A stretch of 63,108 nucleotides of DNA, the filler included, from Dugesia japonica (Eukaryota), in assembly GCA_001938525.1 (NCBI GenBank). It is 6 parts of 6 records of this genome, joined end to end, with 100 filler letters (N's around TTAATTAATTAA, not from the genome) between each part and the next. Parts side by side here need not be neighbours in the genome. Positions count along the whole stretch, not along the records: positions 42,540 to 53,665 come from MQRL01646855.1; 5 more parts are not named here. One strand, 5' to 3'. Both the position numbers and the translations under genes were made by a program. Below, piece by piece: positions 5,031-62,719 of the stretch (its first letter is position 1; the number at the start of each line of letters is the position of its first letter). The notes beneath the pieces were generated by a model. That model searched no databases, was not told the DNA's origin, and saw nothing but the letters and a program-made list of their open reading frames with translations.

Positions 5031-6549
5031 TGATCCTGCTCAATCTGAAATTTCTTTTAAATTCATTAAAATGTCATTTGTATTCGTTTAATTTTTCATT
5101 AATTTTAATTAATGGTAAAGAAAAGATTTTGTTTGATAATTACCAAATTATTTTAAACATCAACTTAAATTTAAAAATTTGGTGTAACTAATATATTTAA
5201 GATTGCATATTTTATTACACAAAATATAAGGAATAACACTAAAGATAAGGAATCTGGGTAGAAATATGATCAGTAAATCTTATACGTTTTTATATCAGTA
5301 ATTTGTCATCTGACTTTGTAAGTTACAAGAGTTATAAGTCGGCAAATCAGGAATTTCAGAAATTTTTCTCACAATGAAATAAATAGCGACGTATGATATA
5401 TAACCTGGTTATTTACTCGATTTATAAAAAAGAAATATTAAAAGTAGATAGATATTGAGTATGAGGAAACTTTCACTCTTGCTCAGTTGCGAGTTCTCAG
5501 CACTGAAATTGGATCTATTACATAACCAATACAAATATAACAATCTTGTCGTTTAACCTATTTCATAATTGTTTTCCATGGAATTTGATATTATAAGACA
5601 AATAATAATTCATTACATAAAAAATATTATTTTTTATTATTATTATTATAGTAGGTAGATAGTGGCGCCACGGCACATTTTTTAGCACAATTTTGAGTAG
5701 TTTTTTTCTAAGATTTTTAGGATCAAAAATATTTTGATCAGATCGAATTTTTTCGATCTGGTCAGTTTTTTTTATCCTGGTGGTGTGTGTGTGTGTGGAT
5801 GTTTTAATTTTAAAATTTGTGTGTTTGGGTTGTTAAGTAGGTCAAGTTGAGTTTGTGTGTGTATGAAAGAAGGGTTTTGGACTCCAGGGGGAGCTAGAGA
5901 TCTTGGAAACAATTTTTTTAAAGGTTTTAAGATTTGGTTGTCGTCGGACAAAAATTTGATTTATACATTGTCTAAAGGACTTATGGGGTAGGATGGATGG
6001 ATTTTGCTAGTAGGGTAGTGACGTACGTCACAGTCGTATGAGTTATCGTGGTGTGTTTTTTGGGAGGTTGTAGGTTTGTATGGGGTTATTGGAATTTGTT
6101 GGTTNNNNNNNNNNNNNNNNNNNNNNNNNNNNNNNNNNNNNNNNNNNNNTGAATGTTGATTTTAAGGGCTTGAATTTGATTGGTTGTAAGTAGTATAAGT
6201 GTTTTATAAAAATGTTTCGGGATGGGGGAAAAGGTATAGTTGGAAAGAGAATTAATTATCGGATTTTTTAAGATTTATTTGAAATTTTTCTGGCCGGCAG
6301 GTGTGACGTAATAAATGTTTGAAATCTTTATTTTGTGTAAAAATGCTGTATTTTGCTTAGAATGATGAATTATTAGAAAGTAATGGTATTTTTGAGTATT
6401 TTTTTTGAGTATTTTTGAGTGGAAAGTGTTGTTTTTAAAATATTTTGAACAGGGAAGACGGAAACTTCAAAGAGGGGAGTCTTTATGATATTTACAGGAT
6501 AAAATATTGAAATAAGAACTTTTCTTTACAAGATGATAAAAGACATATA

Positions 6550-7110
6550 TAGGTAATTTTCTATAAAAAATATGCTACTAGGGACAATTTTCCATAAAGT
6601 AAAACATAGTACTGGCGATATTATTCAATAAAAAACCTATTACTGGTGACAATTTTCTCTAAAAACATTTTAGTCATGCAATTTGTCTATAAAAAAGCTA
6701 TTAGCGTTGCAATTTTAATAAAAAATCTCATTGGCTATGCAATTTTTAATAAAACATATTAGTCATGCAATTTTTCTATAAAAACATATTAGTTGAGAAC
6801 ATTCCTGAGAAAAAAATGATAAAAACAGTATTTTTTTCATAAAAATCCTAAATTCATGGAACCTTTCCATATATAACTACTAAGTCTATATAAAAAACTT
6901 AGAAGAAAATATTTTTATGAGTGTATAAGGTTTATGAGTATATATGGTTTATAAGTATATTATTTGCATAGTTACCTTGTATTATTTACATAGCAACCAT
7001 GTATTATATGGTTTATGAGTATATTATTTACATAATTACTTTGTATTATTACATAGTAACCTGTATTATAGGGTTTGTGAGTACATTATTTACATATTAA
7101 CCGCGTAATA
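6550..7110. repeat. Subterminal degenerate tandem repeats (two unit types)
   Basis: ~38-nt units with CAATTTTCTATAAAAA (6555-6800) and units with GGTTTATGAGTATATTATTTACATA (6910-7110, again 7715-7785). Confidence 0.75.
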
Positions 7111-7357
7111 AAAAGTCACCATGCGAAATCATGCTCGCGCCATGTTCATGAATATTTTAGATAACAAATCATATTATTTGAAACAAATTACACCCAATCA
7201 TATAAATTAAAATTAATAATAACCATTCATTTACTTTGAAACATCTATCGACCAATAGAAACTAACAAATAACGAGTCTTTATGTATCACAGCAAGTATA
7301 TAAACAGTAGGTTTCATAAAATAAGTCACTTTTACAATTCAAAATTACTATTATAAA

Positions 7358-7603
7358 ATAAATCAATTCGAAAAAGAAATTAAGAAAATTACATATGCAA
7401 TTACCAGAGGATCCGCTGACTTTCAATTCATAAGCAGGATCGACAATGGTCTATTGAGAAAACATGAGTATGTCGAACTCATTGTCCGATCAATATTTAT
7501 GGTCAAAATTAAGGAAGAATTGAAGAACCAAAAGAGAAATAAATTTATTGCTGTAACTTTATTGAAATCCATTGTGATATTTTATTTGTTTGGTCGGAAT
7601 TAA
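7358..7603 (+). pseudogene. Small tail-anchored membrane protein, homolog of 46078-46353; start codon is ATA
   Basis: 81 open codons INQFEKEIKK...KHEYVELIVRSIF...AVTLLKSIVIFYLFGRN; about 39/82 identities to the 46078 ORF by hand alignment; CCAAT (7252) and TATATAAA (7297) upstream. Confidence 0.75.
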
Positions 7604-8178
7604 TATAATTATTATTATTTTGTTGTTTAATAAGTAGATTTGAAAAATAATTTTGTTTTTTTCTTGTATTATTTATATAAAAAACTTATAAGTAAATAGT
7701 TTTTTAACTACAATTGGTTTATGAGTGTATTATTTACATAATAGCCGTGTATTATAGGGTTTATTTACATAATAACCATGTAATGTGAGGTAGTAATGTA
7801 AATGCATGCTCGTGTCATACCAAATATATGTTCATGACATGTTCACAAAATTAAATAAATAATATGAAATAATAACAATTTTATTTAAATAGAGATCATT
7901 TGTTTTTTAGTATTATTTAAATGAAAAAATTAACAAGACTTTTTGATAATAAAACATATATTTTGCATAATACAAATACATGCAAACAAATATGTCATAT
8001 GTAATGTCGCATCTTTTATTGTAAACCGCTATCTAGTGTTCTCCACATAGATTTTTTGTATGANTATTGACGATTAAGGCATTGTTTACTGAAATAAGAA
8101 GATTTAAGTAACATTGATGTACTCCGTTCAATCTGAATAGAATTAATAAATTAAACATTAACTTTTCCTTTATTACAA

Positions 8179-9406
8179 TTATTTCAAGAATACCCAGCAT
8201 TGTGTACACCAATACTGTTCCGTTTTCTTTAATCTGAATTTCTTTTCAAGTACTTCATAAATGAGAACATATGCCGATGTTGTTAAAGCTTTGGAAAACT
8301 TCATATCCAATCTCAAATTTCCTTGTTGAGGTAATTGACTCTGATTTATATCAAAATCTGGAGCAAGAACAAATGTTAAGAAAAGATATTTATTCTTAAA
8401 ATCTTGAAGTGTTATTCCGCAATTCATATTTTTATCAAAATATCCCATATTTCTTACTATTGTTGCAAAATTATCGTTTGTAAAATCTTGAGTATATATT
8501 TCTCGATAATCAGTGTTTTTCATCCAAGAAACAGAAACAGCATCTAAATTTTGAAAAGTTGAACTCGAGATTTTAAAACTACTATTATATTGTTCACCCC
8601 ATTGAAAAGTAACCAGAATAAAGCTAGGTAATCGACGATCACATAAGATTTGTTCATTAAAAACGATGAACTATCTTTACTAATTACAAATGTAACAAAT
8701 TCTTTGATTCTTATTGGATAAACAGAATTTTGCTTTTTAGCCCAATTTGGTGAGCAGCTAGTACTGAGGGTTCAACTCGTACTCGTCTAACTATTAATTT
8801 AGCACATAATAATGCATATTTAGGTTGATTAGCGGCAGATTCCAAACAAATATTAGCATTTGCTCGTTTCAATCGTATATGAACATTGACACCTGGAATA
8901 AGTTATTTCGGTTGATCCTTGAAATCGAGTTGTAATGAGCTACATAGAGATAATTGTTTTTATTTTTTTAATAGACTTTTTTCTATCTGCTTCTGATCCA
9001 TATCTCATGATGTAAGACAGATATTCTTACTATCACCATTATAATTTATTATAGTTTCAATCAATGCTTTGTGAAGATAAGATCCATTTCCACCTTCAAT
9101 TTTGAAATTATTAAACAAAAGAATTGCATTTTTAAAAATTGTATGCAACATTTAGTTACTAGGAACCGAATCATCCGTATCAGTCAAATCTTTATCATCC
9201 TTATCAACTACCTTTACTTAAATATACAATAAAGTATCATTCAAATCCAAATAATCTGTTTGAGATCCATTTATAAAAAACTCTACATCGCTTTGTGATT
9301 CAGAAATTGAATTCATAAGAAAGACATCTTCGAAACTACCATTTTCAATTACAGCTTGAGGAGATGGTCGATCAAAAATACATAATTCAATTTTACCGCA
9401 AATCAT
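8179..9406 (-). pseudogene. Polinton major capsid protein (double jelly-roll, hexon-like), disrupted
   Basis: N-terminus CGKIELCIFDRPSPQAVIENG...VEFFING...YLDLNDTLL, then LHTIF...LN; C-terminus GNLRLDMKFSKAL; typical of Polinton MCP; stops and frameshifts present. Confidence 0.85.
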
Positions 9407-9900
9407 TTTTCAATTATTGTTCCATGTCCTTTTATTCGTTTGTTTATACGTGATGAGTTAGATTTTTTGAGTTTTTTATTAGTTGGTTCTGTTTTGTATT
9501 GATTTGTTAGCATATTAGTTATTTCAGATGATATTTTATTAGTTATACTTTGTGGTAATATAACTGCTACTTTTGATATCATACTGGTAACTCTACTAGG
9601 TAAGGAATAATCTACATTTCTAAGTTCAGCTAATGCATTTGATTTCAATATGGTTAGTATTTTTTCAGAATTAGCTAGTACATCCTGAGCTGTTTTCATA
9701 CCAAAAGAACCAAGCATTTTTTTTAAATTTTAAATTTAGGAATGCAAACAGATATATGTGAAGAACGAGGATTGTTAAACGAAGAAAGACAACCATTCCT
9801 CCCATTTGCAGTTATCAAACAATATATCGCGGCTGAATTTTGCACACCTGACTGTATTGTATGTGCAAAGTTTAACCTGTATGTTGCAATGGAGAATAAT
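9403..9900 (-). pseudogene. Polinton basic core-like protein gene upstream of MCP
   Basis: G..TAQDVL motif, Lys-rich C-terminus, QMGG remnant upstream; stop codon overlaps MCP start codon. Confidence 0.55.
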
Positions 9901-10306: not shown

Positions 10307-10406
10307 NNNNNNNNNNNNNNNNNNNNNNNNNNNNNNNNNNNNNNNNNNNNTTAATTAATTAANNNNNNNNNNNNNNNNNNNNNNNNNNNNNNNNNNNNNN
10401 NNNNNN
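10307..10406. other. Artificial contig-joining spacer N44-TTAATTAATTAA-N44
   Basis: Identical 100-nt structure five times; the 12-mer has stops in all six frames. Confidence 0.97.
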
Positions 10407-14065: not shown

Positions 14066-14214
14066 TGAAAATAATTACGTCATTTGTTATGTAATCAACC
14101 GGGAATTAAATTTTTAGTTTAAATAAAGTGAAATTAATGATTTAAATAAATTATTTTTTTAATTAATTTTCACGGAAATCCAATATGTTTCACTGTTTAA
14201 TTTTTTAAAAAATT

Positions 14215-14520
14215 AAATTAAATATTTTCAAAATGAAGAAATTTACCCAAGGCTTAGGCTAAAAATGTTTTTTTAAATTTTTAATATGGTTAAAAATTAC
14301 AAAAATTTAATTTTCTGCGACCCAATTTTTCGATTTTATTTTCTTCAGGAATTGTGATTAAATTAATTGAATAAATTAATCACAACTCTTGAAGAAGATA
14401 AACTCGAATATTTGGAGAAGTAAGTTAAATTATAGAAATCTCTAACCTCAATAAAAAATTTTAAAATCATTTTTTGATCTAAGCCTTAGTTTATTTTCTT
14501 AATTTTGAAAATATTTAATT
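14215..14520. repeat. Imperfect foldback/MITE-like inverted repeat
   Basis: TTCTTCAGGAATTGTGATTAA / TTAATCACAACTCTTGAAGAA inner arms and AAGGCTTAG / CTAAGCCTT outer arms around ~14370. Confidence 0.65.
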
Positions 14521-15459
14521 TTATCATTCAGAGATCAATGGTTAAAAATTTTAAAAAAATAATTAATTACCAAAAAAGTAACTTTCACAATAATCAAAAT
14601 ATTTTAACAAATAATTCAAATTTTCATGGGAATTCAGGTGAACAGTCTAAGTTTTTCAAAATTAATTTTTATGCTCAGATTTCAAATACTTATATACCAA
14701 TCTTTTAAGAATTTGGCGGGAGTCATTTTTGGTTTTTTCAATATTTTACATAGATTTTTTTAAAAATAAAAAGTATTTCAGTACCAGCTAAATTAAATTA
14801 CCAGACTTGTTAAAAAATGCTCTCCTAATAAAAAAAGATTATCAACATCTGCTGTAGAGTAACGCTTGCAAAACGTTTTTATTTGGCGAACTGATATGCG
14901 ATTATGTAATAGTCTTTATTGAATGTCTTTAATTAATTGGAATTTTACGATTTTTAACCATGATATTCTTGAGCAGTGGAAACTTTTCTATTGAATAGAT
15001 ACTCTGATAATAAAATTTGAGAAGAAAAAATTTTTCGAATAAATAAAATTTTTTATCAGAAATGAACCCGATGAAATTCTCAGCAGACTGATATAAAAAT
15101 GTAAATGCCATGAAAACAAAAATTATTTTTGAAAAATTTTAAAAATTGGTTAACTTAAACAAAAATAGGCTTTTCCGCCGAATTTCCGTGTAAAAATTCA
15201 AATTTTCAAGTGATTTCGCAACAAAATTAGAGGGAAGTGACTATGTAATAGGACTAATGTTACGCTTATTGTGTATGCATTAATTGTGTAATAGATCAAA
15301 CTTCATTCTCAGTTGGTCTAGTCACTAGACTCTATTGTGTACATAACCGCCTACTAAAATTTAACTAATAAACAAAATTTTTAGATAATTATAAAACTAA
15401 TTTTGATCAAACATAACCGAATAAAATGAAAACAAAAATAATGACTATTTAATGCGATA

Positions 15460-42439: not shown

Positions 42440-42539
42440 NNNNNNNNNNNNNNNNNNNNNNNNNNNNNNNNNNNNNNNNNNNNTTAATTAATTAANNNNN
42501 NNNNNNNNNNNNNNNNNNNNNNNNNNNNNNNNNNNNNNN
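42440..42539. other. Artificial contig-joining spacer
   Basis: N44-TTAATTAATTAA-N44. Confidence 0.97.
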
Positions 42540-43700
42540 ACAGAATTATTGTATATAGATATCAACAATCTATATGGATGGGCGCTAAGTCAAAAATTGC
42601 CCTATTTGATTTGGAGTGGGTTTATACAGGATTAGAAGATATTATAGATGAAAGTAAATCAGCAGACTTAGAGTCACTACCATATGGATGCAAATTGGAG
42701 GTGGACATGTTTATTCCGGCGAGATACAAGATAAATTGAACGATTTACCTGTAGCAGCAGAACATCAAAGAAATTATTACTGACTCATTACTCGAAAATG
42801 AATTATGTTATACACTGGAGGTTGCTGCAAATTTACATTAAATTAGGAGTACAGGTAATTAAAGGTTCATAGAGCAGTTAAATTCAAGCAAGCTGCGATT
42901 TTTGAAGAATACATTAAACAATATACAGTACTGAGATCAAAATGTACAACGGAATTAGATAAAACTATTACAAGTTATTAAATAATAGTCTGTACGGTAA
43001 GTCTGTAGAGAATTTGAAGAAACGAATAAACTTGCACTTGTGCAATTCAAACAAAAACGTTGATGACATATACGTCAAAAGCTAATTTTTTGAAAACTTT
43101 AAAAATAGATCAGGACCTAATAGCTGTTCTTCTTAATAAGGACATTGTTTGTTTGGATGGTCCGAGCTACATCGGACAGACTGTACTAGACCTCTCAAAA
43201 CTCCGTATGTATCAATTACAATACATTGATTTGGAAAAAAACAGGAGGGAAGAAAATTGTACAATAATGTTGTAGCTGGAGGTTGGAAAAACTAACCGGA
43301 CTGATGGTAAGAGATCAGCTATTGAATACGTCAAATTGTAGCACAAGCAATCCCATTTACTCGAAAAACTTAAACAGTATGATTGGAAAATTCAAGGACG
43401 AGAGTAAAGGGAAGAAATATAAAGAGTGGATATTTTTAAGGTCTAAATGTTATAGCCTACTCAGCGATAAAGAATCGTGTAAAGCTAAGAGCATATCATT
43501 GAAGAATAGCGGCATCACACATCAGTCATATATTGACTATTACAATAATAATTATGCTGTCATTGTAGATTAGTTTCAAATATCCACTCGTAATCATCAA
43601 CTCTACAGCATGAAAAGTAAAAAAAATAGCTCTATTCAATAGGGAGGATAAAAGAATGTGGATAGAGTAAAATATAAGTATGCCGTACGAACACTATAAA
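42540..43700 (+). pseudogene. Polinton pPolB C-terminal polymerase domain, disrupted
   Basis: LLYIDINNLYGWALSQKLP (motif A), YYKLLNNSLYGKSVENLKKR (motif B), PSYIGQTVLDLSKLRMY, IGKFKDE, FLRSKCYS; paralogous to 26468-27159. Confidence 0.92.
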
Positions 43701-45196
43701 TTAAGTAAATAACAAAAAAAATATGTAGTACTTTTTCTCGTGTTATCAAAGTGATTACAATGAAACAGAAGCTTGTGTCAAGATGGTAAGTATTTATTTT
43801 TATATTGTAAATATTTAACATTTTTCTTTAGTATTTAAATTGTTGCTTCTGATCCAGATAGTTTACTGCTGTTGCTACAAATCAAGTTGATCCGTATTGG
43901 AAAACATTTATTATTTATAAATATTAAGTACAATTTCATATTAAAGTTTATTTTGCTGCTCATTCCGCTTCTACNTTAAGAAAATTGTTCCGTATCGGTA
44001 ATGAATTACTTTATTGTAAATTTCTTTAAACAATTTTTTATTGTAGTATATTTTCAATCAACAAGAAAAGAAAAGAAATAAGAAATTATGAAGAGGAAGA
44101 AGATATTTAAAAAGAACAAGAAAAAAAATTGTGAGGAATACCAGCCCTCTTTAGGGCTACAATTGCTGATTATTGGATTTCATATTTAAAATCTTTGAGA
44201 CTAAACTCACGATATTGTTGATTTGGCTTTGTGAAATCCAAAAGGCATCTCAACAATTAAACAATAAATTCGCCGCAGTAAACTTGCTCGTGATAAAACA
44301 TGTTACATTCTAAATCTAAATAAATTTAAATATGAAATAAAAATTAAAATAAGTTATCTTTTTTATTAATAGTGCATTTATGTTTCTTTTCCAATGCAAC
44401 TGATAACGATTGTATTTTTATCATCAACCGTATATCTTTGATTACTTCCGGACTCTTACAATTTAGATCCATGTTGANNNNNNNNNNNNNNNNNNNNNNN
44501 NNNNNNNNNNNNNNNNNNNNNNNNNNNNNNNNNNNNNNNNNNNNNNNNNNNNNNNNNNNNNNNNNNNNNNAAAAAGTTATATTTTCTAATTTCTGGTTAA
44601 ATTCAAGTTTTTCATTACATTTTTCATTTTGAAATATTACTAAGAATTCCAAAAATTGAATTTCCATCAACGCGTGCAGACCAGCTTGTAATGTATTGTA
44701 ATGTATATCTATACAGTAAAACCTCTTTATGTGTTATTTCTTCCATAGCATTTATAAAAGGTTCCAAATTGTACAACTTCTTGAGAGTGATTGCTTTCTT
44801 CAATTTGCATTGGTTTAAGTATTTTTCAACACTTATTGTTAAATGTCTATTTTCCCTTGTAAAAATAAATGGAATACTTAAATTACATACCTTTTCTTTG
44901 TGTAATTCTTCATTATCCTTGTNNNNNNNNNNNNNNNNNNNNNNNNNNNNNNNNNNNNNNNNNNNNNNNNNNNNNNNNNCCATAATAATTTGAGAAAATA
45001 ATGATTGATTACTACAAATTAGACTTTACATATGTTAAAGCATGCATGTGTGTTCTTTGTTTACGCGATAGGCTGTTCTTTGTTTGTGGTACTGATTGAA
45101 TACGTTTATTATTGGTTTTATTTACATTTCTTATTTTATTGGTTAACAAAATAGTATAAAATTTAAAATAATTTAATAATTTCATTATTTTTCTAA

Positions 45197-45729
45197 ATGA
45201 ACAAATACCAGTTGATGTTGAAGATAACCAACAAGATGCTTCTCACGATGAAAATGGAACAGCAATTTTCTGAGGCTATAGGTAAATTCTTTATTTATTT
45301 AAATACCTTATAAAATTCAATTTAGATAATAGTCAAGCAGACGCGGAAACTGATATAGATATGGGAGAAGAAGAAGAAGGATTAAATACGAAAGTGATTG
45401 ATTTATTGGAAAATTCCGCAGAAGTTTTTGATCATGGTATTATTATTCTTATTATTTTATGATTTTTTATTATTATTTTAGAACAGTTTATTGATATCCT
45501 TGATATCCTTTATCCAACAATCAAAGATGACATCAAATGCTGTGCACCTGAAATAATTTGGATAAAAATAAAGAAAATAACTGGAGTGGATATCATAGAT
45601 GTCATGGACACCTTTTACAAATACCATGACGATGAATGCAGTCAATGCGAAGAAACAAAAACCATTTTAAAAAGAAACTTTCTTGATACTATTTATAGCG
45701 ATAGTAATAATATAAAACAAAGATTGTAA
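45197..45729 (+). CDS. Hypothetical three-exon protein (~147 aa), acidic middle, Cys/His-containing C-terminus
   Basis: Exons 45197-45281, 45326-45436, 45482-45729; 44- and 45-nt AT-rich GT..TTTAG introns, both phase 1, join into one stop-free frame; GTATAAAA at ~45154 and two inverted CCAAT boxes upstream. Confidence 0.7.
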
Positions 45730-46077
45730 TTTAATTGTAATTTCATTGTATTGAAGTTTAATATAATTTTTAACTAGACTTTTTGACTAAATTTTTATTA
45801 ATATCTGTGGTCGTTTAATAATTTGTAATAAAAACTTAAATTTAATGTGTTTTCATAAAAGTTGCAATTCAACTGCAGTATGTAAGCAACAAGAATGCAA
45901 CTATAACAAAAAAATGCAAACAAACAACTTNNNNNNNNNNNNNNNNNNNNNNNNNNNNNNNNNNGGTAACAACTAATAGAAACTAACAAAAAACGTGTAT
46001 GTATGTACCTTAGTAAGTATAAAAGCGGTAATTTTCTTTAAAAAAAACTTATTTTATAATTCCAAATTTTTCTCAAC

Positions 46078-46353
46078 ATGAATTATTTGGAAAAAGAACT
46101 TAAGAAATTGTCAGATTCAATTAACAGCGGATTCATTGATGAAATTCAAATCCTAACCGAGCTTGATAATTGTCCAATGAGTAAACATGACTATGTTGAA
46201 CTTATTGTCCAATCAGTATTCACGAAGAAAATTCAGGATAAATTGGAGACACGAAGAAGAATTAAATATGCTGCTATGACTCTATTGACATCAATTGTGT
46301 TGTTTTATGTGTTTAAAAGAAATTATTGTAATTATCTTATTAATAAATGTTAA
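46078..46353 (+). CDS. Small predicted tail-anchored membrane protein (91 aa)
   Basis: Intact ORF; hydrophobic YAAMTLLTSIVLFYVF flanked by RRRIK and KR; TATAAAA at 46018; AATAAA downstream; homolog at 7358-7603. Confidence 0.75.
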   Translation: MNYLEKELKKLSDSINSGFIDEIQILTELDNCPMSKHDYVELIVQSVFTKKIQDKLETRRRIKYAAMTLLTSIVLFYVFKRNYCNYLINKC

Positions 46354-46496
46354 TTTAACCAGTTTTTTTTGTTTTTCCTTATTTGTTTAAAAAAAATAAA
46401 TATAAAAAAAGAATTTTCAATAAAAAATATTTTAAAAAAATTGATGAGATAATGATCTAGAAAAAATTTTCTAACATGGGGAGTGATCTAGAAACC

Positions 46497-46672
46497 GATG
46501 AGTCATGATCTGGAAAATTGATGACTCATTGTCTTTGTTATAGTCATTGATGAGTCATCATTTTAAGTCATCGCCTTTGTTTTTGGCATCGATGAGTCAT
46601 TTTCTTTGCTCTAGTGATCGATGAGTCATACTTATGACTCATTGTCTGTGTTCTATTCATTATTGAGTCATA
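46497..46672. promoter_or_regulatory. Cluster of seven AP-1/TRE sites TGA(C/G)TCA
   Basis: Exact matches at 46499, 46522, 46551, 46593, 46622, 46635, 46664; function is inferred. Confidence 0.6.
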
Positions 46673-46797
46673 CTTTTGATTCAACGTCTTTCTTGTATAA
46701 GTTCTTTGTCTATGGGAGCGGATGTGATCCAGTGAGCTATTATCTACCTACGTATGGAAGGTAAACAAGAATGTTACTGAAACAATAAATGAAAACA

Positions 46798-47379
46798 ATT
46801 ATTAATAATTTATATATTTAAACTACAAAAAATTTTAAATTTCCCTCCAAAAAAATCTAACTCACTTTGTANTTCCGAGCGATAACTAGTAACATATAGT
46901 AACTCCCTATGAGTTATCAAAGAAAGACTTTCAAAAAAATTTCAAAAAAAAAATTTTCAAAAAATTTCATAAAAATAAAATTAATTTTGACGCAAAAAGA
47001 GCAGAAAAAAATACCTATTAAACTTTACATATAAAGATCACTAAAGCTCATATTATCTATTCANNNNNNNNNNNNNNNNNNNNNNNNNNNNNNNNNNNNN
47101 NNNNNNNNNNNNNATTATTAATAATTTATATATTTAAACTACAAAAAATTTTAAATTTCCCTCCAAAAAAATCTAACTCACTTTGTAATTCCGAGCGATA
47201 ACTAGTAACATATAGTAACTCCCTATGAGTTATCAAAGAAAGACTTTCAAAAAAATTTCAAAAAAAAAATTTTCAAAAAATTTCATAAAAATAAAATTAA
47301 TTTTGACGCAAAAAGAGCAGAAAAAAATACCTATTAAACTTTACATATAAAGATCACTAAAGCTCATATTATCTATTCA
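46798..47379. repeat. ~265-nt direct duplication around an N gap (likely assembly overlap)
   Basis: 46798-47063 is essentially identical to 47114-47379. Confidence 0.85.
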
Positions 47380-50109
47380 ACTACACATATGGTATATTAA
47401 TAAAAGATAAAATGAGAGCAAAATCACCAGCAAATGTATAAAATGTCAAAGTGTCACAATATTTTCTAAAATAAATAAATTTACCGATTTTTTTAAAACA
47501 CTTCCCATATAAATTAAAGTAGCGATTGAAGGATATATTTCTCTTGTTCCGGCAGCAGCTGTATCAAACAAAGATTTGGTATCCATTCTTGTAGTAATTA
47601 GTATAATGGATTTTTTTAAGTATCTTTTCGATGGATTAAACGTTAAATAAATGTTATATCCTGATAAATCAGNNNNNNNNNNNNNNNNNNNNNNNNNNNN
47701 NNNNNNNNNAGTCAAATGAAATAATTTTATTAATTAACAAAACAGTTATCATAACTATTGTTGAAGAAATATTAAATCATCAATAAACTTTTAATTGTTT
47801 TCAATTGTTTTAATTGAATTTTTAACAGAAAATATACGAGAAAACGTGAACGAAATTATTTAAATAAGTTGATCAAAAATTTTATTATGCATTTACAACA
47901 TTAAATAATACTTATGAAAAATAGTATGAAAGTGCGGCAAATAATTTTTCGTTTCTGAAATATTTTTAGGAATTTTTGAACTTTTATGCCATTTCATGAA
48001 AGATATCCTGAATTCATCACCATTATCAATAATAACATCTTGATTAAATTACTCTATTTGATTCAACATTTCCATTAGTTTAGTTGACATTATATCATCC
48101 ATTGCTTCACACATAATTTGAAAAATTTACAATGATTGCAAACACTTAATTTAAACAAATAGTATTTAAATTGTTAATAAAATCAATAAATTAATTAATT
48201 TTTTTAATCTTTTAATATAGTATCAACTATTGGTTAATAACGTATTGTCTTGATGCTAACTATTACAAACTTGCCTGATGAAAATAGATTGGCACATATG
48301 TGATCATACTGCTCAATAATTCGATCATTTCAGGTATTAATAAATAATTGGAATACTATGGAACTATATTTGACTAGTGATTTGTGGAAAAACTGAATTG
48401 TTAATTTTTGATCGTCCATCGCTTCAAAACAGGAAAGCATTTAAAGAAAAGTCTGGTGTATTGCCTAACAATTACATGTTTCATGATATGTTCAAAAATG
48501 GTATTCTGGTATTTCAATAATATCAAAATTAGAGTTGCAAATGAAACGTATATTTCAAAGGTAAGAACTGACTCTATTTTAAATTATAATAGAAATTTTA
48601 AGAATATTTATCTTAATGCACTTGTATAAAGAACTAAATAATTTCGAAAAATGTTTATTAAATCATCACAACTATTGTATATGGTTCTTTGCAACTCGAT
48701 TTCATAAATCAATCATAATATCTTGTTTTTGGTGTTAATTTCCACATTTAATTGAAGAAATTATATCCAAAAATTACGGAAGAATCATTAAATTATGAAC
48801 CAAAATATGTATTATTGGATGCAAAATCGATGGTTAGAAGAGTTCAAGTATATCCATTAGTACTAACAAGTCATCAAATTTGATTAAGCAAATAATGTGT
48901 TATTTAACCAATAAGATCAAAGGAAATTGTATCATATGTAATTAATGATAACAGTCATCGTTTTATAAGAAATAAATTTAAGCGTATGTAAAAGTAAATT
49001 TAAATTTAAGAAGTAAAGTTAAATTCAAACTTTGGAAGCGATATATATAGCAATAAATAGTTAGAAATATGGGATATTTAAACAAGAATACGAATTTTGG
49101 AAGAACTCTTAGAAATATTTAGAATAAATATCCCGTTTTTACATTCGTTCTTGGATTTTTATTCAACAAATTTTCAGGACTGCACAAGATTTTGAGAATC
49201 CGAAAGAGTAGAGAGATAGTAGCGCATCAAAATATCTATCCCCTGGCAAGTGTTTTGAAAAAGTAATTTTTGAGCGTTTTGATTGGTCAATAAAAATCCA
49301 TGGAAAATTTTAAATGTTCTGAAAATTTGAGCAATTAGATTTTTCGATAAAAATACATGGAATATTTTTCGATTTTGCTTTGTCGATATTTTGGTCGAGG
49401 AGTTTGAAAATTTGAATTTAATTTTTCGGCGAATTTTTATTGTATGACTTCAAATTTTGTATGGATGAACTTGTAATTAAATTCTGTATAAGAAAATAAT
49501 TTTACCTTTTTCAAAACATGTTTGGTTCTCGCTACAAGGGTAGTAGCGGCATGAGAACACTTTGACTTATTTTATAAATTTCTCGGTCAATACCCATCGT
49601 ATCGCTCTGAAAATGATTTAATCTGATTAAGAATAAGATTTTAAACATATTTTGTTAAAGTTTTGTTGTAAAAATGCTTTGTTCAAAAGTTAGAAAATTA
49701 CCATGTCCCACCTTAGATAAAAAAATTATTTACATAGAAAATACTTATGATAAAAAAAACTGAATATATTTCGTATTGGGTTAGCAGTATAAAAATGCTT
49801 CCTTCAGGAAATAATGTACAACTATATAGTTAATTATAAATCAGAATTATAATTAAATTAATAATAATTTTTAAAGTATTGTTAAACGATTCAACTAAAA
49901 ATTAAAAAGTTCTATAGAAATATAATTTCACTTTACTTAAAAATAAAGATTATTGATATAACAAGATTTATTTCAATAAAAATTTAATCTTTATTGAACA
50001 AATTTGAGCTGGTTGATATTGTATTGGTTTGTATTGATACACTAAAATTAAATGCATTGAGGTAATGAAATAATAATTAATAAAATACTACTACTACAAA
50101 ATTTTTATC

Positions 50110-50700
50110 ATGAATCGTTAATTTTTCATAAAAAAATATCAGTCAAGTCAACTTCTTTCTCTACTTTAACTGGTTCATCGATATACTACCATACAATAAA
50201 AACCGTATGAAACCTTTGGTATTGACGATATATGGCAAATGGATTTGGTGAAAATGATATTGTATTCGAGAATTAATAAAGAATACAATGATATTTTGAC
50301 ATGTGTCGATGTATTTAATAGATTTGCAAGAGTTGTAGCTATAAAATCAAAATCTGCTAATAAGATGGAAGCTGCAATAAAAACAATCTTCAAATAGGGG
50401 CATCCTGATAATTTGCAAACTGATTTGGGAAAAGAATTCTATAATTAAAAGTCAAAATTATTATTAATCATCTCAAGATTAGTCATTATTCTGTATTTTC
50501 ACAATACAAAGCAGCATATATTGACAAATTTAATCGAATCTTGAGAGATGCATTGTACATATTGGTAATAAAACTTGGATACACGTTTTATTCAAAGTAA
50601 TCGATAGTTATAATCACACAAGTCACATAGGGTTAAATGAAGCAAGACCTGCATCATCTAATAATTCAATGAAATTATGGATTTTGAGACATCAACCAAA
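50110..50700 (+). pseudogene. Polinton rve (c-)integrase, disrupted
   Basis: GIDDIWQMDLV, ILTCVDVFNRFA, PDNLQTDLGKEFYN, KAAYIDKFNR. Confidence 0.9.
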
Positions 50701-50799
50701 TGTTGGTGATCATTTTAGAATCTCAAAGATATAAGCTTCACTATTCATCAAGAATTTCGATTGTAATTGGAGTGATGAAGTGTTTCAAATATCAAAAAA

Positions 50800-51880
50800 T
50801 CAATACAAAGCAGAATCTGAGTAATAGTTGTCCATGTATTCATCCTGATAATAAAGCAAGTAGATTCATTGTTGCACTTGAAAATCCTATTTACTTGAAT
50901 GAACAATGGGAAGGAGCCTTGATGAATTTTACCTTTATATATTCTGCTTTTCAATTATATAACAAATCATACATCATACATACAGTTGATGATTATGAAA
51001 GGAATGTAGAAATCATAATCAATAACAAAGAAAAGTCATTGATGGTTCATGGTGTTGGTTTTGAAGTGATTGATGAAAAATCATTGTTAATAATATTAAA
51101 ACATCATGATTATGTTGTAATATATGACAATTTAGAAGATGCTAGAAAATATGGATTTAATACTTTAAGGAATAATATAGAATCTGATTCTACCATACTA
51201 AATCAAGACTTTAAAAACGATGATTCGATTAATATTGTGAAAATGAAATTAATGTTTTTAATAGAAACTAATAATTTTATAATTACAATTATTGTGAGAA
51301 TAATTGTTGGACTTAACCATTGATCGGATTTGAGATTTCATTAAAATAAATTCATATATTTACAAAACGAATATTACATATCAAATTTGGATCAATTTGA
51401 TAATTTTATCACAAAAATGTGCAAGTCTGTAATCAAAACACTTACTATAAAAATGATGAACCATTCCGATTTTCATTGTTGGAAAGTGTTAAAAGTGTTA
51501 CGCTTGACAATGTCTTGACCAAATCATTCCGATTAGATAAACAAACATATGCTTGTGATTATAGAAATATAGTCCACACTGAATTCATTGGTGTTAAATA
51601 TCCAAAATTAATCACTAATCCTCCCCAAATGTTCATATATAGTAATATTGTTGAACTTATAATAGTTGGTGATGTTAATGTTCCTTCATTGAAATCTGCA
51701 TGGTTGGAGAATTATGAAGATGATCAAGTTGCTCAGATTATAATCAAGAATCCAATGTATTTCTCAGTTGCCACTTCATGAATAAACAATATAGAAATCA
51801 ATATCCGAAGCGATAGTGGAGAATTAATCAAGTTTGCTAAAGACTCAAAAACTCATTTACTCTACATTTTCGAAAATAAA
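50800..51880 (+). pseudogene. Polinton minor capsid (penton-like) protein, disrupted
   Basis: SNSCP.IHPDNKASRFIVALENPIYLNEQWEGAL at the N-terminus; MFIYSNIVE..IVGDVNVP.L...NPMY...INNIEINIRSDSGELIKF...LHFRK at the C-terminus. Confidence 0.85.
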
Positions 51881-51899: not shown

Positions 51900-52400
51900 G
51901 CTTATCAGATTCAATAACTGAAACTATTGGCTTCTTATTTTTGATATTGATTAAATTAAATCCAAAATTTTTAGCATCTGATAACGATTTAAATCCCATT
52001 TCTACTTGACATCTGTTTTAATATTACTTTCATTTTATCGGAAAATATATACCAGTTATATTTATTGGTAGGGACGGTATTATTAAGTTGAAGACTACCA
52101 TCTAAAATACTTAATTAAAATTTATCTTCAATTTCCATCACCTTTCTTATTTTATATTCAATTTTTGAACCTTTACGTATAGTAAAAATTGAAATAAAAT
52201 TCTGTCATGGTAACTTCAAAACGGATATCCTTTAAATTGATGGCATTCTCATAGTCAATTAATTACTTGCTTGCATTATTATCAGATCGAGTTCTTGGAC
52301 AACTATTGCTTAGCAAAACCATATATAAACTTATTATTGGATTTAAGACACTTGAATCTACGTATGCTTTGAATATCCATGCCATTCAACTAGATATTGT
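51900..52400 (-). pseudogene. Second penton-like remnant
   Basis: Minus strand MVLLSNSCPRTRSDNNAS directly after the integrase, paralleling 50820. Confidence 0.5.
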
Positions 52401-52469
52401 TTATATTGGCCTTGACCTTTGGTTTTGAGAACTGATTTGATTTGAGATATACTTGGTTTTTCCGCCAAC

Positions 52470-53321
52470 ACTTGTAATTCCTGCTCAAAATATTTGCTTT
52501 GAATAATATTACCATCTTCAGCACGTATTACATATATAACTGGGGCCGGTCTCGTGTTGATTTCCGAGATTTGAAAGACTTCATAACTCCAATTATTATC
52601 AAAGCTTTTGATGAATGGCGTAGTACTAATTCGGGAAATCCGTACATGTCCAATTTTATATTTTGGTTTTGGTTTTTTATTGATGAAATACTGAGTATAA
52701 TCATCTTTATCTGTAACATCAACTGGTTTTTGTCGTCTTTCAATATCTCTATGCTCAGAATGGTTGTATGCATAAATCGTTTTTGGTAAAATATGTATCT
52801 ATTTTTTGNTATCTTGTTTGGTAAAACATTTCTTAAATCGCCTTGTACTGAAAACTTACTGAATGGTGTAGTATACCATATTGTTTCAATAATGATTTGA
52901 CCTGTGTATTATAAAACTCTTTACCAAAATCTGTTTAAATAGCTTTTGGGTGAACATCTTTAAACATTGTCATCAAAGCCAACAAAATATCTTTACCAGA
53001 TTTTCGTGTGTCTGGAACTGCACGTGCATATCGACTAAATACATCAACACATGTCAAAATAAATCTTTAATCATTATTTATGCTTGCATATGGAATCATT
53101 TCCATCAAATCCATTTACCATAGTCTATTAACCCCAGTAACAATATATTTGCATGTTGGAAACCCTTTTCGTATTGGTTTATACAAACTATATGCCAGTT
53201 TATTGCTTAAACATTTCTTTATCTCTTTTACGGAAACATTTGCAGCATTTGCAAGCTTTGAAATAACGGTGTATTTAACCGGGTTCTTTGGATTAGACCA
53301 TAGTTGTTCCATCAATTTCAT
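52470..53321 (-). pseudogene. Second Polinton integrase, disrupted
   Basis: AYSLYKPIRKGF, LW*MDL, FILTCVDVFSRYA, PKAI*TDFGKEFYN, NWS.EVF.I region. Confidence 0.88.
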
Positions 53322-53419
53322 CGTGCAAATACAACAAGGAATATTTAGTTAAATGTCTGGAATATTAGAAGGTGCAACACCCATTTATATTGAAATTTCA
53401 AAAAGAATTGATATTTAAT

Positions 53420-55959: not shown

Positions 55960-58090
55960 AGAAAAGACTTGTAATAATCAATAAACAATTGATGGAGACC
56001 TGCGAGACTTTAAATTGAACTAATAATTATAATCCAGAAATTTGTGACATCTTCAGAATTGATAAAAACAATGAAATTGAATATTTTAAAGATAGTAAAG
56101 TGGAATAAACCAGAAATGTTGAACAACTACAAAAGAAAATGATTAATGAATTTCAAACTGATATAAATGAAATTATTACCAAGTATTTCAATTATGGTAT
56201 AAAGATTAATGTTCGAATGAGTGTAAATTCTAATTATAATAAAGAAGTAAATGATGAATAAGTGGAAAGAATTTATAATCCCTGTTAGTTACTGATAAAC
56301 CTTCTGAATTTATAACACAAAATTTAAAATCTTCAAATCTTCAAAAAACTATGTTTTTAAAAGATGAATATTTAAACAAACATTTTAAATATTTTAAAAA
56401 ATTCTTGAAATCTTTTATAACATTTTCTTCAAACTTTAAATTACGATTTTCAGTTTTTAATCCTTAAATAATTTTAAAAATTTTTGAAATCTCTTATAAA
56501 GTTTTCTTCAAACTTTAGATTGCAATTTTCAATTTTTAATCCTTACAATTCATATTCAAAGAATAGACAATTTACTATTCAAAGTGAAATTAATAATGGT
56601 GTTAACGGTATTATAAATGAATTACAAAGATATATTGAAGATAAAGATCGAAATGAATCTGGATGGAATTTAAATTACATTGTTGATTATAAAATTGAAA
56701 TTTCTAAATATCAATCTTTACCTGGAGCAACTTATCGAAAATTACCATTTTCAAAACCAGGTGTAATTAATATTCAAAATAAAGATGAAAAATATTTTCT
56801 CTAATCAATTTTAGCTCATAAATATACACTTGATAATCCAACTAGAGTTTCAAATTATATTTCTTATTTAAATGAATTTTAAACAAACAGAATTAAATTT
56901 TCTGTAAATATTAAAAATGTTTAAAAATTTGAAAAATTGAATAATTAATAATAATAATAATAAATGTATTTGAAGTAAAAAACTGCAAAAATTGAACCTT
57001 TATATATTTCTCATTTTGAAACTAAACCTAAACCTGAGGAAAATAAATGTAATTGATTGATTTATAAAAATCATTATATTTTATGTAGAGATGTGCAAGT
57101 ATTTTTTTACAACAAACAGAAATAAAAATTTTTGTGTATCAGATGTATGAATTGTTATCAAAGTAAAAATTTATTAGTAAAACATCAAAAGGAATATATT
57201 AATCATGAAATATAAAATATCACATTTTCAAAACATTATTATTATTCTTTTCAAAATTATTATTACAAAAATAAAATGCCTTTTGTCGTGATTTTGAAAG
57301 TTGGACTAATATTAACACTAAAAAACAAAAACTTTCATCTCTTGGAATTTATAAAGTAAATAAATATCCACATTTAATGCAACATAAATAAAAAGAATTT
57401 TATGAAGAAAACCTTCATGAACAATTTTTCGACTTTTTAGAAGAGATTAATAATAAATTAAAGGATATAAAAGAAAATAAATTAATTAAAGAGTTTAATG
57501 GTGAACTTGCTCACCTTGACCTTTCACAAACTCAAAGTAAACAAAATAGATATTGTGATAAAATATAATCTCAAATGAAAATCCAGTAATTGATCACGAT
57601 CATTTCAATGGAGTATTTAGAGTTTATGCTCATTCAAAGTTTAGTTTACAAGAAAAATCTATAAAGTATTAGCTTATTCCATTTTATTTTCATAATGAAT
57701 CATGTTATGATAATCATTTATTTTTCAAAGAATTATTAGCAAAATATCCAAGTAAATTTAAAAAAAAATCCTCATACAGATGAAGTTTACATTTCATTTT
57801 TCATGTGTATGTGGAGAAAGACAAGTATTTAACCATAACAACAAAAAAATCCATACACTAAACAAGTAAATAAAGCACAATTTGATGATTTAATAAAAAT
57901 GATGAATTCAAATGAGAAAATTCCATCTTGTATGACTCAGCCTTTACCAACAGGTGAAATTTATGAATGTAATCTCAACGGGTCCCATAACTTAGAATAT
58001 ACTCAATCAACAAGTAAAATGAATTATATTTATGAAGTTAATTTAGAATATCCACCAGAATTACATGAAAAAACTAAATAATTTCCTTAA
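55960..58090 (+). pseudogene. pPolB of a second Polinton lineage, decayed
   Basis: SGWNL...ISKYQSLPGATYRKLP...VINIQNKDEK; VIDHDHFNGVFR.YAH; FYFHNESCYDNHLF; MTQPLPTG; IYEVNLEYPPELHE. Confidence 0.85.
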
Positions 58091-58859
58091 TTTTTTCTAC
58101 GTTTTAATTTAAATTTTAATTCATTTAAATTATCACCTTTGGCTTGCTCATCCATTTTATTTTAGAGATAATTTGGGTTTTAATAATAATTCAGAATATG
58201 TTTTTTTAGCAATTGAGTAATCACTCAAAATAATAATTTTATAAATATAAATATTTTTAGGTAAAATTAAAGTAACTCTATCTATAAAATATTTATCAGT
58301 TTGTAGAATTCCTTTTTTAATCTATAAAAAAAAGTAAATTTTTGTTTTTTTAATAAAGTTGTATTCAAATATTTTTGGAATATTATCAATCATTACATAT
58401 ATTTCAAAAAGTGAAATATCACAATATCCTAGAATTATAAAATAGGCTTTATCTCTTATTCTATTTAAACGAAAATAAAGTTCTAATGGTTTTTCAAGGT
58501 AATGATATTTATTGATTATTCTTCCTTTTCTTTTTATTTTAAATGGTGATATTAAACCATAATAACTTGGTAAGTCATTCTTTATAATAAAAGTGGTTAA
58601 TAAAAATATTAATATATCATTATACTTACCATAATTTTTTAAAATGAGAAATGGAAAATAATTATCGATTATTTCTTTAATTCTGTTTAATAAAGGTTGT
58701 TCATAAAGTTTTTGAGCTGATGCTTGTTTTTTTAATTTATCAATATAATCATTAATTTCTTTAACACGATCTATGTGAAGATCTTGTTTTATTTTAATAA
58801 ATTCTGTTTTTTAAAGAAAATAAAGGATCGTGCATCATTTGTTTATTAAATTCGATTTT

Positions 58860-59405
58860 GTAATTTAGTTTTTCCAATTCTGAATTAATTTTTATTAAAT
58901 TTTTCAGGAGAACAATTACTAGATAAATTATTAATCTCTTTCCCGAGTTTTGTAATTTTTTCTAAGATGTTGGTAATTTCATTTGTGAGCTTCAAGATCT
59001 CTTGTTTAACTTGTATCTTTTTCGAATCACTCTTCGTTTGCGTTAGCTCATTTTTCAAAGAAATAAAAGATTCATTTAATTAATTTATTTTATTAATTAA
59101 ATCACTCTTGGTTTTAATCCATGATTTATTATTTTCTAAAAGTNGTTGAATATANATATTTTGATCATTTACTTGTTTTTTTAAATCAATAACTTGTTTT
59201 TCTAATTTACTAAAATATTTTAAATTAATAGCATCTAATTCATTTTTAGGATCATTAATAATTTTCAAACAAGTAATTGAATCCCCAATTTTATTAACAA
59301 ATCTCGCTTCGTTCTCTACAGATTCTAATTTTAATTTAGCAGAAACATGTTTTAATATTTTTGCATTATTTGACTATTTAAAGTTTCTCCACAACAATTC
59401 ATTTC
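58860..59405 (-). pseudogene. Fiber-like/coiled-coil protein
   Basis: FVNKIGDSIT.LKIINDPKNELDAINLKY followed by heptad-rich sequence. Confidence 0.4.
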
Positions 59406-59406
59406 T

Positions 59407-59820
59407 TTATTTAAGTAATTTATTAATAATTTCTTCAAAGGTTTTAAAACTTATTGAATATAAAAAATGTAAACATAATATTCCACAAATACTAGTTCCA
59501 AAAGGTTGAACTTGAATTTTATTATAAAAATTTACATGTTTTTTGATTTCTTTAAAAGGTTTAAATCCATAAGAATCAAAATAATAACCACGATAAAAAG
59601 CAACCCCAAGACTTCCTTTTTGATTTGTATTTTGATAATAATTAATATACTTTTTGTTTTTCGTCACATGCATGTCACCAAAATTATTTTTATCTTTATT
59701 TCAAACCTTAGCGACTTCATCTTTCACTAAAACCTCAATTTCTAAATTTAAAAAATTCGCAATAAAATATAAATCAAAATGGTTTTAGTATTCATTCAAA
59801 ATGTTTTTAAAAATCTCATA
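59407..59820 (-). pseudogene. Adenain/Ulp1-like cysteine protease
   Basis: KGS(H)..VAF..YYFDSYGFKP...YNKIQVQPFGTSICGILCLHFL with D, Q and C catalytic motifs; His region altered. Confidence 0.85.
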
Positions 59821-59829
59821 TTGTATAGT

Positions 59830-60484
59830 TTAAACAAGAGATTTTCTTATATGAACTAATAAAGAAATATTTTGCCCATTAAAATCTATTGGATTATTAT
59901 TTTCATCTATGATATTAAATTTTAAAGAATCAATACATTTAGAGTTTAATCTTGAACAAATTGGAGGATAAAGTCTTTCTATAATTTTATAACCAAAACC
60001 TACAGTATTTGAAGTAAAAGAATATAATAAATTCATTGGAGAGTTGTTGATATAATCACCTTTAACTAGATTTCAAGTTTTATTTATCATATTATTGTTT
60101 AAAATATCAATCTTATTTTCAGAATAATATTTTCATGATAAATATTCTTTTGGTAAAAAACCTAAAATTGTATGAAAAAAAGATTTAACATCAAATTTTA
60201 TTGTATGTTTTTGTTTTTGAAAGATCTGGTGTAACTTCTATTCCATGATCTTTTAATTTATTAGACATTTCTTTAATTTCATAAGCACCTGGCTCTATAA
60301 TTTTTTGTTCATATTGATTTTCTTTTAATTTAAAAGTATTATTTTTATTAGTAACATTAAAAATTATATTATAACCACTAAAACATAATAAACCCATTTC
60401 GTAGTCAGAATCTAATTCTATTGAAAATCTTAAATCAACTTCTAAATTAAATTCTTTACCAACAACTAAAAATTGATGAGACAT
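59830..60484 (-). pseudogene. Minor capsid (penton-like) protein, second lineage
   Basis: IELDSDYEMGLL.FSGYN.IFNVTNKNN, PGAYEI, LLYSF..GFGYKIIE, IIDENNNPIDFNGQNISLLVHIRK. Confidence 0.75.
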
Positions 60485-60511
60485 TTTATTTAACTAAAAT
60501 ATTTTTTTTAT

Positions 60512-61314
60512 ATACATTATATTTTTCTTTGGTAATTAATTCTGGGTTTAAAAACTCTTTACAAACAGATTTAATTTCTTTGTGTAAATTATTATGACTT
60601 GTTTTCACTGCTGAAATTAATAATGTCAATATTTCAAATAAAGTTAGTGGATCCCTTTCGGTTTCATGATCTTTAAAAGCTTTAATAAAGTCAAAACCTT
60701 CACCTTTAGTAATATCTTCTTGAATTTCTTTTTCAACAGGAGTTTCCTTTTTAAGCTTTGGTATTTTTGAAGTTTCACGACTTTCAGGAGTTTTTTTCCC
60801 CAGTTAAAAATTTATAATAATTAGAAGTAGTAGGAATTTTAATATTTAATTTATTTAAATAAATATCTTTTGCTTCTTCATCATTACTTCCATTTCCTAA
60901 AACTAAATTCATTACTTCTTCAAAATATGGTATTAGTTTTTCTTTTGTTAAAAAGTATTTCTTTCCATCACTTTCTTCAAATAAATATATTTCTTTGTGT
61001 GGGTAAATTATTTTTTGAAATTTTTTATTATTAATAACTTCTATTTTAATAATTGTTTGTATAATTGTTTTAGATAAATCATCAACATTTAAATTAAGTT
61101 CAGGAAAGAATGGTATTCTATTTTCAAAAGGGTTTATAGGTTTTATACTTAATTTTTCAATAGCTTTAATAGTAGGTTGTTGCTCAAAGGTTAAAGTATC
61201 TTATAAAGTTTGTGATTCAATTACATTAACAGTTATTAAATTATTAAAATCATTTTGAGCTTTAATTAATTCTTTCAAAAGTTTTATTCTTGCCAACATT
61301 TCCTTATTATCCAT
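60512..61314 (-). pseudogene. Polinton hypothetical protein between core-like gene and penton
   Basis: Fragmented reading frames from MDNKEMLARIKLLKELIKAQ to LLISAVKTSHNNLHKEI; positional assignment only. Confidence 0.35.
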
Positions 61315-61319
61315 TTTAT

Positions 61320-61860
61320 TTAGGATTATCATGAGAATTAACATAAGGTTTTAAATACAAACCATCACTACTAGTTTTTATTTGTACTCCATTTTTAAAG
61401 TTTTTAGTAAGCATCTTCAACTCTGAGTTTGGTAAACTATTTTTTAAATATTTATGAATTGCACTTCTTTGTTAAGGTTTTAAGTAAAGTCCTGATCCAA
61501 AACTAGTTTTATCTGAACCTTCTTTTTCTAATTTTTCTATTTGAATTATTTTTTCTGTAATTCAACTAATTCAGTTTTATTTGATTTTTAATTGCAATTC
61601 TAGGATTACTTATAGTTGAAGCTATTCCAGTCGCAATTCCAGCTGTTGATGCTTAAATCGGCAATTATAGCTGGTATTGCAGCAAGGAAAGCAAATCAAC
61701 CTTGATGTTCTTTACCTACTTTCTTTTTTATTTCTTCTTTAACTTTATTACCAATCCAATATTTTTTACTTTTAATTTTTACAGATTTACTTTTATTTGA
61801 ATTTATCAAATCAATTAATTCTTGTTCTGATACTGAAGACATATTATTCACTTGTTTTTG
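61320..61860 (-). pseudogene. Basic core-like (pVII/pX-type) protein with GxGLYLKP repeats
   Basis: HQG*FAFLAAIPAIIA, FGSGLYLKP and SDGLYLKPY motifs. Confidence 0.55.
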
Positions 61861-62059
61861 GAAAAAATAATAAAAATATTCTTATTTATGTTTAGTATCC
61901 AAATTTAAGTCCTCTTTCTCCTCTTTCACCTCTTTACACCTCTCCTCCTCTTTTCATCTCCCAAATTTAAAGAGGTTGGAGGATTTTTAAAGAGGAGAAA
62001 TAAATTACACCTACACCTCTTTCAAATCCTCTTTCTCTTCAAATAAGTCTTCTATTAAT

Positions 62060-62700
62060 ACATCAGCTTCTTTATCTAAATAGTAATAATTGTATTTAGT
62101 TTTCCAATATAAATTTACATTATAATCATATTCCATTTTACTATAAAATATATTACTAAANAAATCATAATAAACATTATCTTTATCAGTTTTATTTAAT
62201 TTAAAAAATATAAAACAATTAGAATTATTTCTAATAGTTTTTATCTAAATGAAAATAAATTTGTGAAATATAAATGACATTACAATTTACATGTCTTCCT
62301 CTGGTAAAATAACTTTTCTGAATTTCTTGATCTTTGGCATTTACAACATCATCAAAAACTATTAAATTCTTTTTGTGTTTAGATAATTTATCACAAGGAA
62401 TAATTTCATTTGGTTTATTACTTAGAACTATGTTGATTGATCTTGGTTTATTTATTAAATAATTTGTTTTCTATAAACCATTCGATGACTTGTAATGGTG
62501 TTATTAAAGAATCAGGAACTATATTTTGATGTTCGAAAATAAAAATAATATCTTGTTTTGTTAATTCATTTTCAAAACCATGATAAACCAATTGTAATTC
62601 AAATTGATTTATAGTTGTAGAATAAATTATCAAAGTGTGATAATCTAAAAACTCTGGAGTTAATAACCTTTTCATTAACAAAACATTTTTACTTGATTCA
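62060..62700 (-). pseudogene. A32/FtsK-like DNA packaging ATPase
   Basis: Walker B NLIVFDDVV, SYFTRGRHVNCNVIY, IRNNSNCFIFFK; Walker A region damaged. Confidence 0.88.
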
Positions 62701-62719
62701 GAAGATATATATTTTTATA

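Follow-up and report, generated by a model that had tools for sequence, protein, structure and literature searches.

Two open frames in the genome of Dugesia japonica that resemble each other at the protein level raise the question of whether they are copies of a real gene of Polinton-like elements, whether that gene is kept by selection and what its product might do in a host cell. Both lie in the stretch of DNA analysed here (the window), which consists of six AT-rich contigs with 100-nt spacers between them, 63,108 nt in all, and contains LTR-retrotransposon and Polinton-like remnants as well as one homeobox frame. We call the two frames copy E and copy A and the elements around them element E and element A. 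Polintons (Mavericks) are characterised by genes for PolB, integrase, capsid and packaging ATPase, by inverted repeats at their termini with AG-type ends and by a target-site duplication of 6 bp. Neither element is complete, the window is without any complete Polinton-like element, and the matches to an integrase (rve, 50200) and an ATPase (Pox_A32, 62234) belong to other insertions. Together, our data indicate that the window probably holds one unbroken copy (E) and one dead copy (A) of a real, unnamed and probably tail-anchored accessory family.

Two copies and the elements around them

The original prediction described a 91-aa frame that aligns at about 48% identity, with one gap, to a frame on another contig, placed both near an element terminus, and took them for an accessory gene of two different Polinton viruses. 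The length, the alignment and the separate contigs were borne out, and the reading as an accessory gene of two different Polinton-like elements is supported. Copy E has a start codon and the expected length, the spacers at 10307-10406 and 42440-42539 put the two frames on separate contigs, and copy E aligns to 7358-7600 with 39 identities in 82 positions (48%; 74% positives) and one gap. The stop-to-stop frame of copy A (7325-7603, 92 codons) has no ATG, and we regard this copy as a pseudogene. The window contains two exact occurrences of a 12-nt terminus-like motif, at 5650 and 33714, and a third at 46741 that has one mismatch; one was found for each of elements A and E, the opposite ends of which fall off their contigs. 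In both elements the small gene sits between the core genes and the element end, copy E between the polymerase remnant and the terminus and copy A between the terminus and a capsid-like gene (Table 1). The orientation towards the terminus is opposite: copy E points to the end of its element, about 390 nt off, across an array holding 7 of the 10 AP-1-type sites in the whole window, and copy A is directed inward, away from the terminus motif.

Table 1. Features of elements A and E, in window coordinates.
Feature	Position	Strand	Remarks
Terminus-like motif, element A	5650..5661	+	1.7 kb before copy A
Direct repeat, left member, element A	6887..7200	+	imperfect; end approximate
Copy A 5' flank	7251..7357	+	same 16-nt motif (7254-7269) as copy E; TATA-like box 7297-7304
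Copy A	7358..7603	+	homologous frame of 81 codons that lacks an ATG and is one codon shorter than copy E at the gap
Direct repeat, right member, element A	7674..7900	+	end approximate
Broken, presumed major-capsid-like gene, element A	8182..9409	-	convergent with copy A
Remnant taken to be a broken family-B polymerase (PolB), element E	42542..43573	+	2.5 kb upstream of copy E
Copy E 5' flank	45972..46077	+	common with copy A, 76% identity
Copy E	46078..46353	+	91-aa ORF with ATG
Seven AP-1-type sites (TGASTCA)	46499..46670	.	array between copy E and element end
Terminus-like motif, element E	46741..46752	-	11 of 12 nt equal to the motif at 5650

The core genes of both elements are broken. We read the motifs of the element E remnant as those of a family-B polymerase; it is 51% identical to a remnant on contig C, which itself matches DNA_pol_B weakly (E 0.023). 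The capsid-like gene of element A, which we take to be the major capsid gene, shares 57% amino acid identity with the remnant at 48377-49167 and has no library match. Immediately upstream of it lies an open 104-aa ORF (9403-9717, minus strand), again with no library match, which resembles, in position and amphipathic start, the Cupiennin-like gene found in Beta-type modules of adintoviruses. The interval from PolB to copy E holds two further unidentified coding remnants with good DNA-contig coverage, at 44344-45025 (minus strand) and 45463-45729 (plus strand), the latter with a CxxC pair.

At the nucleotide level, self-blastn aligned 7251-7617 to 45972-46342 at 73%, which delimits a shared cassette of about 370 bp. 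The two ORFs agree at 73% of their nucleotides, and the flanks at 76% (5') and 72% (3'). The upstream flank of copy E, with its 16-nt motif (45975-45990, identical in copy A) and TATA-like box (46018-46025), presumably acts as a promoter. The terminal regions of the two elements gave no mutual alignment in the same self-blastn comparison. Since elements A and E are unlike in ends and layout, with only this promoter-plus-ORF cassette in common, the cassette has probably passed between Polinton families, and after that transfer it probably decayed. Recombination within the terminal accessory region is a fairly likely route for such an exchange. The dS of the cassette was 0.31 vs 0.68 for a capsid pair, with a PolB pair saturated, the capsid and PolB pairs being drawn from insertions other than elements A and E. 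The family profile found no third copy in the window. A cassette and upstream stretch common to elements with different ends amounts to small-scale Polinton mosaicism, and excerpts of published accounts describe mosaicism as frequent in the Polinton virus group (10.64898/2026.10.13.758929), cargo as borne by insect polintons (10.1101/2025.02.07.637071) and accessory regions as flanking the core modules of vertebrate Mavericks (PMC8097293). The small gene is likewise a non-core gene in the interval from core modules to element end, as are the accessory ORFs in the excerpted Maverick/Polinton account (PMC8097293); the description of accessory genes in those excerpts does not use the word 'transmembrane', whereas the gene here has a predicted tail anchor.

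Outside relatives, divergence and transcription

A phmmer search of 1.84 billion representatives returned nine matches at E <= 0.001, eight of which were small proteins (82-112 aa, 36-53% identity, E <= 5.7e-4); the ninth, a 1027-aa repeat protein (P0011, E 9e-4), was discarded. A profile search contributed five more homologues and a cluster look-up two, giving 15 outside homologues, about 30-53% identical, that have start methionines and match copy E in length and architecture. When residues 1-60 were used alone, 10 of the 13 homologues tested were still recovered at E < 0.001, so the match is not driven by the hydrophobic tail. All of them have a 60-residue helical domain and a basic patch, and 13 of the 15 also a C-terminal hydrophobic tail; the invariant or near-invariant columns fall outside helix 1, in the central helix and the loop. 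One sequence, P0003, which shares 75% identity with copy A, has a tandem duplication of helix 1, covering roughly the first 22 residues. Evidence for a gene family comes from these 15 outside homologues and not from the A/E pair; judged from the sequences, the gene is real and its family unnamed.

The original prediction had not recognised the family, and our library searches agree with it. In Pfam the A/E pair had no useful match and ten members reached a best E of 0.035, every family being matched by a single member; PHROGs gave no useful match for 17 members (best E 0.015), a profile search of the PDB gave none at E <= 10, and the ESM Atlas gave unnamed clusters only (best 0.79 and 0.85), absence from these four lists leaving room for a described family. 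Literature searches on tail-anchored proteins in Polintons and on adintoviruses in planarians gave no description of the small protein. ENA, JGI and Logan assemblies are the source of the outside homologues, which belong, where looked up, to clusters of one or two members. Two candidates from the IMG/VR scans were rejected as chance matches, L001 lying out of frame within an 855-aa phage ORF and L002 within an unrelated 286-aa ORF. Scans with the capsid and PolB fragments found nothing.

We compared the two copies with each other. Over 81 codons, the NG86 method gave dN 0.336, dS 0.312 and omega 1.08 (bootstrap CI 0.53-2.4), and a codon likelihood model gave omega 1.34-1.36 (CI about 0.7-3, p = 0.43-0.45 against 1). 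The original prediction had called the pair conserved and had named a dN/dS near 1 as speaking against it, and a value near 1 is what we obtained. Control pairs from the window gave lower values, namely 0.26-0.33 (ML) and 0.42 (NG86) for capsid, 0.01 (ML; NG86 saturated) for PolB and 0.02-0.03 (ML) and 0.54 (NG86) for integrase, with a downward bias in that the control blocks had been selected by tblastn. Copies A and E show no purifying selection of the kind acting on core genes. The 39 identities seen compare with 40.5 +/- 2.9 expected when the same substitutions are placed at random, and the flanks are as alike as the ORF, so that the pair shows no conservation by selection.

Two further observations speak for some coding constraint. 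Conservative replacements exceed expectation (P about 0.02-0.03). The frame stayed open in just 2.7% and 4.2% of 20,000 neutral simulations each, a figure that is inflated because the pair was chosen for having open frames. Unbroken stretches of the adjoining capsid and PolB remnants run to 40-163 codons, which makes an open frame of this size ordinary. The A/E pair is compatible with neutral decay, with relaxed constraint and with diversifying selection, and the explanation preferred below takes its divergence as neutral. That there is no gene at all, and that the frames are open by chance in a non-coding repeat of which these are two decayed copies, would suit both the neutral protein identity and the similarity of the flanks; the outside homologues, with their start methionines and fitting length and architecture, largely refute it and leave it scarcely credible.

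A cassette can also be a passenger, or a captured gene with relatives in other elements, phages or microbes, that is of no use to these Polintons. The dN/dS near 1 and the imperfect direct repeats that enclose copy A would fit such an origin, as would the outside homologues, all of them from metagenome or run assemblies without context and one automatically named 'pilus assembly protein TadC'. Against it, scans of IMG/VR and a pattern search through 185,579 prokaryote genomes, both sensitive to close relatives only, found no relative, and none of the 10 sequences looked up in 8 small-protein clusters had an NCBI or UniRef source. We consider a passenger origin quite improbable and retain the reading as a Polinton accessory gene, a link known from the copies in this genome alone.

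Many sister copies are seen in DNA contigs. Those of run X1 gave 4,294 pieces across the interval 42600-46790, most of them at 85-95% identity, and the summed X1 depth over the ORF was similar to that over PolB, depth here not being equal to copy number. Three X1 pieces over the ORF, among the matches listed, carry gaps, from which it follows that some sister copies are broken. RNA covered the ORF in one of three runs (X14, 5.95 vs 0.72 in bin 46100-46239; X13 and X17 gave 0.37 and 0.23 in that bin), with the same strand bias as over PolB and at lower depth. The depth of X13 and X17 at 46240-46519 was left uncounted, as it came from low-complexity reads that fitted only in part. With 6-25% of each RNA run read, reads of at least 99% identity over the whole stretch numbered 0 of 245, 0 of 750 and 1 of 241 in the three runs, so the RNA cannot be ascribed to copy E; sister copies are weakly transcribed.

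A predicted tail anchor and its possible roles

A C-terminal hydrophobic helix flanked by basic residues had been put forward as a tail-anchor signature. Both copies indeed have a basic patch and a hydrophobic stretch at the C-terminus; in copy A a lysine interrupts the stretch. In copy E the stretch spans residues 64-79 (about 46267-46314), only 16 residues, with a basic patch around residues 58-63 ahead of it and a 12-residue tail after it. The pattern extends through the family: 15 of 17 sequences have a charge-free stretch of 16-22 residues near the C-terminus, the same proportion has 4-6 K/R in the 10 residues ahead of the tail, and the tails are short and, in all but one of the 17, carry a net charge of +1 to +3. 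Hydrophobicity is strong in the best 15-residue window (2.1-2.6), whereas no other such window exceeds 1.3, and none of the 17 has a second hydrophobic segment. A tail-anchor rule, its thresholds fixed after the family had been seen, picked out 13 of the 15 outside homologues and 2 of 140 window frames, namely copies A and E. These features suggest that the product is probably tail-anchored, in which case the tail would quite likely insert post-translationally, with the helical part of 60 residues on the cytosolic side.

Where the protein might insert is less clear. In excerpts of a study of mammalian cells, from which the tail-charge rule derives, mitochondrial proteins had a mean tail charge of 1.12, shared ones a mean of 2.5 and ER proteins a mean of 0.21 (PMC5450235). 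Tails of +1 to +3 are nearer to the mitochondrial and shared means and the hydrophobic core favours the ER, which splits the evidence on location. A mitochondrial or shared mitochondrial/peroxisomal location, as opposed to the ER or nuclear envelope, is a tentative choice to which we give a little less than an even chance. Set against the cellular tail-anchored proteins of that same excerpted study (PMC5450235), the family has the same single C-terminal hydrophobic segment and short, mildly positive tail, yet shows no sequence or fold relation to them, and its targeting is predicted.

Structure prediction gave no informative fold match. The model from 17 sequences (pLDDT 69, pTM 0.29, no packed fold) places one helix at 3-16 and a long one from 36 into the tail, with a loop of poor prediction quality between them; in copy E the helices are predicted at 3-16 and 36-90. 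It had no Foldseek match in the PDB; a model from two sequences (pLDDT 51) had no BFVD match at E <= 0.001, and VIA-align returned generic long helices only (best Z 6.6).

The main rival for the function is an egress or membrane-remodelling protein: a tail-anchored helix that would oligomerise in the inner nuclear membrane or the ER and promote the exit of particles from the nucleus or the cell, in the manner of viroporins or small viral egress proteins. The strongly basic patch before the tail, the hydrophobic core and the single long helix predicted to continue into the tail all suit such a protein, and herpesvirus tail-anchored egress proteins are known, as excerpted in PMC5072318. However, in element E the gene lies outside the capsid module and is apparently swappable, it has no fold match, and core morphogenesis genes are under purifying selection whereas the small gene is not; excerpts on Mavericks likewise report strong purifying selection on core genes (PMC8097293), unlike the A/E pair. 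An egress function therefore appears unlikely to us.

The original prediction had also raised apoptosis, and one version of that idea is a BH3-only mimic whose helix 1 occupies the grooves of Bcl-2-family proteins at mitochondria and tunes apoptosis. BH3-only proteins combine an amphipathic helix with a tail anchor, and the small family shares this layout and their small size. A relaxed BH3-like pattern occurs in helix 1 of copy E and three homologues (4 of 17) and the strict pattern in none of the 17, which makes a mimic very unlikely; the motif is not conserved, and the best-conserved columns lie elsewhere, in the loop and central helix. The apoptosis idea thus gains no support from the motif. 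At 82-96 aa the proteins are short for a Bcl-2 fold, and for a Bcl-2 bundle there was no Pfam, PDB or fold match, the model pTM being only 0.29. In favour of the idea, Bcl2 and IAP homologues occur in adintoviruses, which according to excerpts of PMC8502044 also encode PLA2X, GasderminX, Cupiennin and unnamed Adintoc genes. These are animal Polinton-type viruses with predicted membrane-acting or anti-apoptotic extras, a likeness to the gene here; PLA2X, GasderminX and Cupiennin differ from it in belonging to a virion module with recognisable folds, while the small gene encodes a predicted C-terminal anchor and matches no recognised fold, and the comparison with the Adintoc groups goes by their labels and description only (PMC8502044).

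The explanation that we prefer, and hold somewhat more probable than its negation, is a small Polinton-like accessory gene whose product has a predicted tail anchor in an internal membrane, mitochondria being somewhat likelier than the ER, and likely binds a host protein, with the cassette passed between families and the copies neutrally diverged. The conserved hydrophobic helix faces might serve as the binding surface for a partner or for a second copy and so shift defence signalling or cell death in the host to the benefit of the element, a step that is possible and, on balance, rather unlikely. The omega point estimates above 1 would permit a bolder version, which we consider distinctly unlikely: an undescribed family of tail-anchored host-cell modulators, its promoter-plus-gene cassette moving between Polinton lineages under diversifying selection like a host-conflict gene, and a marker of unrecognised animal DNA viruses in metagenomes. 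If true, Polintons would thereby gain their first known effector family directed to mitochondria. Little is known of how Polintons handle animal host cells, and terminal accessory genes are likely tools for it; a compact, unnamed family with 15 outside relatives is an easy experimental target, with function as a proposal and both copies here fossil-like.

Other features of the window

Several further features of the window were recorded. An open 222-codon frame at 13187-13855 (plus strand) encodes a divergent homeodomain (Pfam E 1.9e-17), presumably NK2-like, and is probably a host gene. On contig E, which is a pile of several insertions, a near-perfect 266-nt direct duplicate (46798-47063 vs 47114-47379) with an N run between its members is probably an assembly artefact, and integrase remnants at 50200-50800 (plus strand) and 52358-53348 (minus strand) lie in opposite orientation with a possible minor-capsid remnant between them. 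Another decayed Polinton-like element, at 56478-62714, retains pieces resembling PolB alongside a packaging ATPase (Pox_A32, E 3.3e-5), with no copy of the small gene in its visible part. Finally, self-blastn found a self-inverted element of 313 nt (14212-14524, 77%) and a near-perfect palindrome of 118 nt (28215-28332, 98%).
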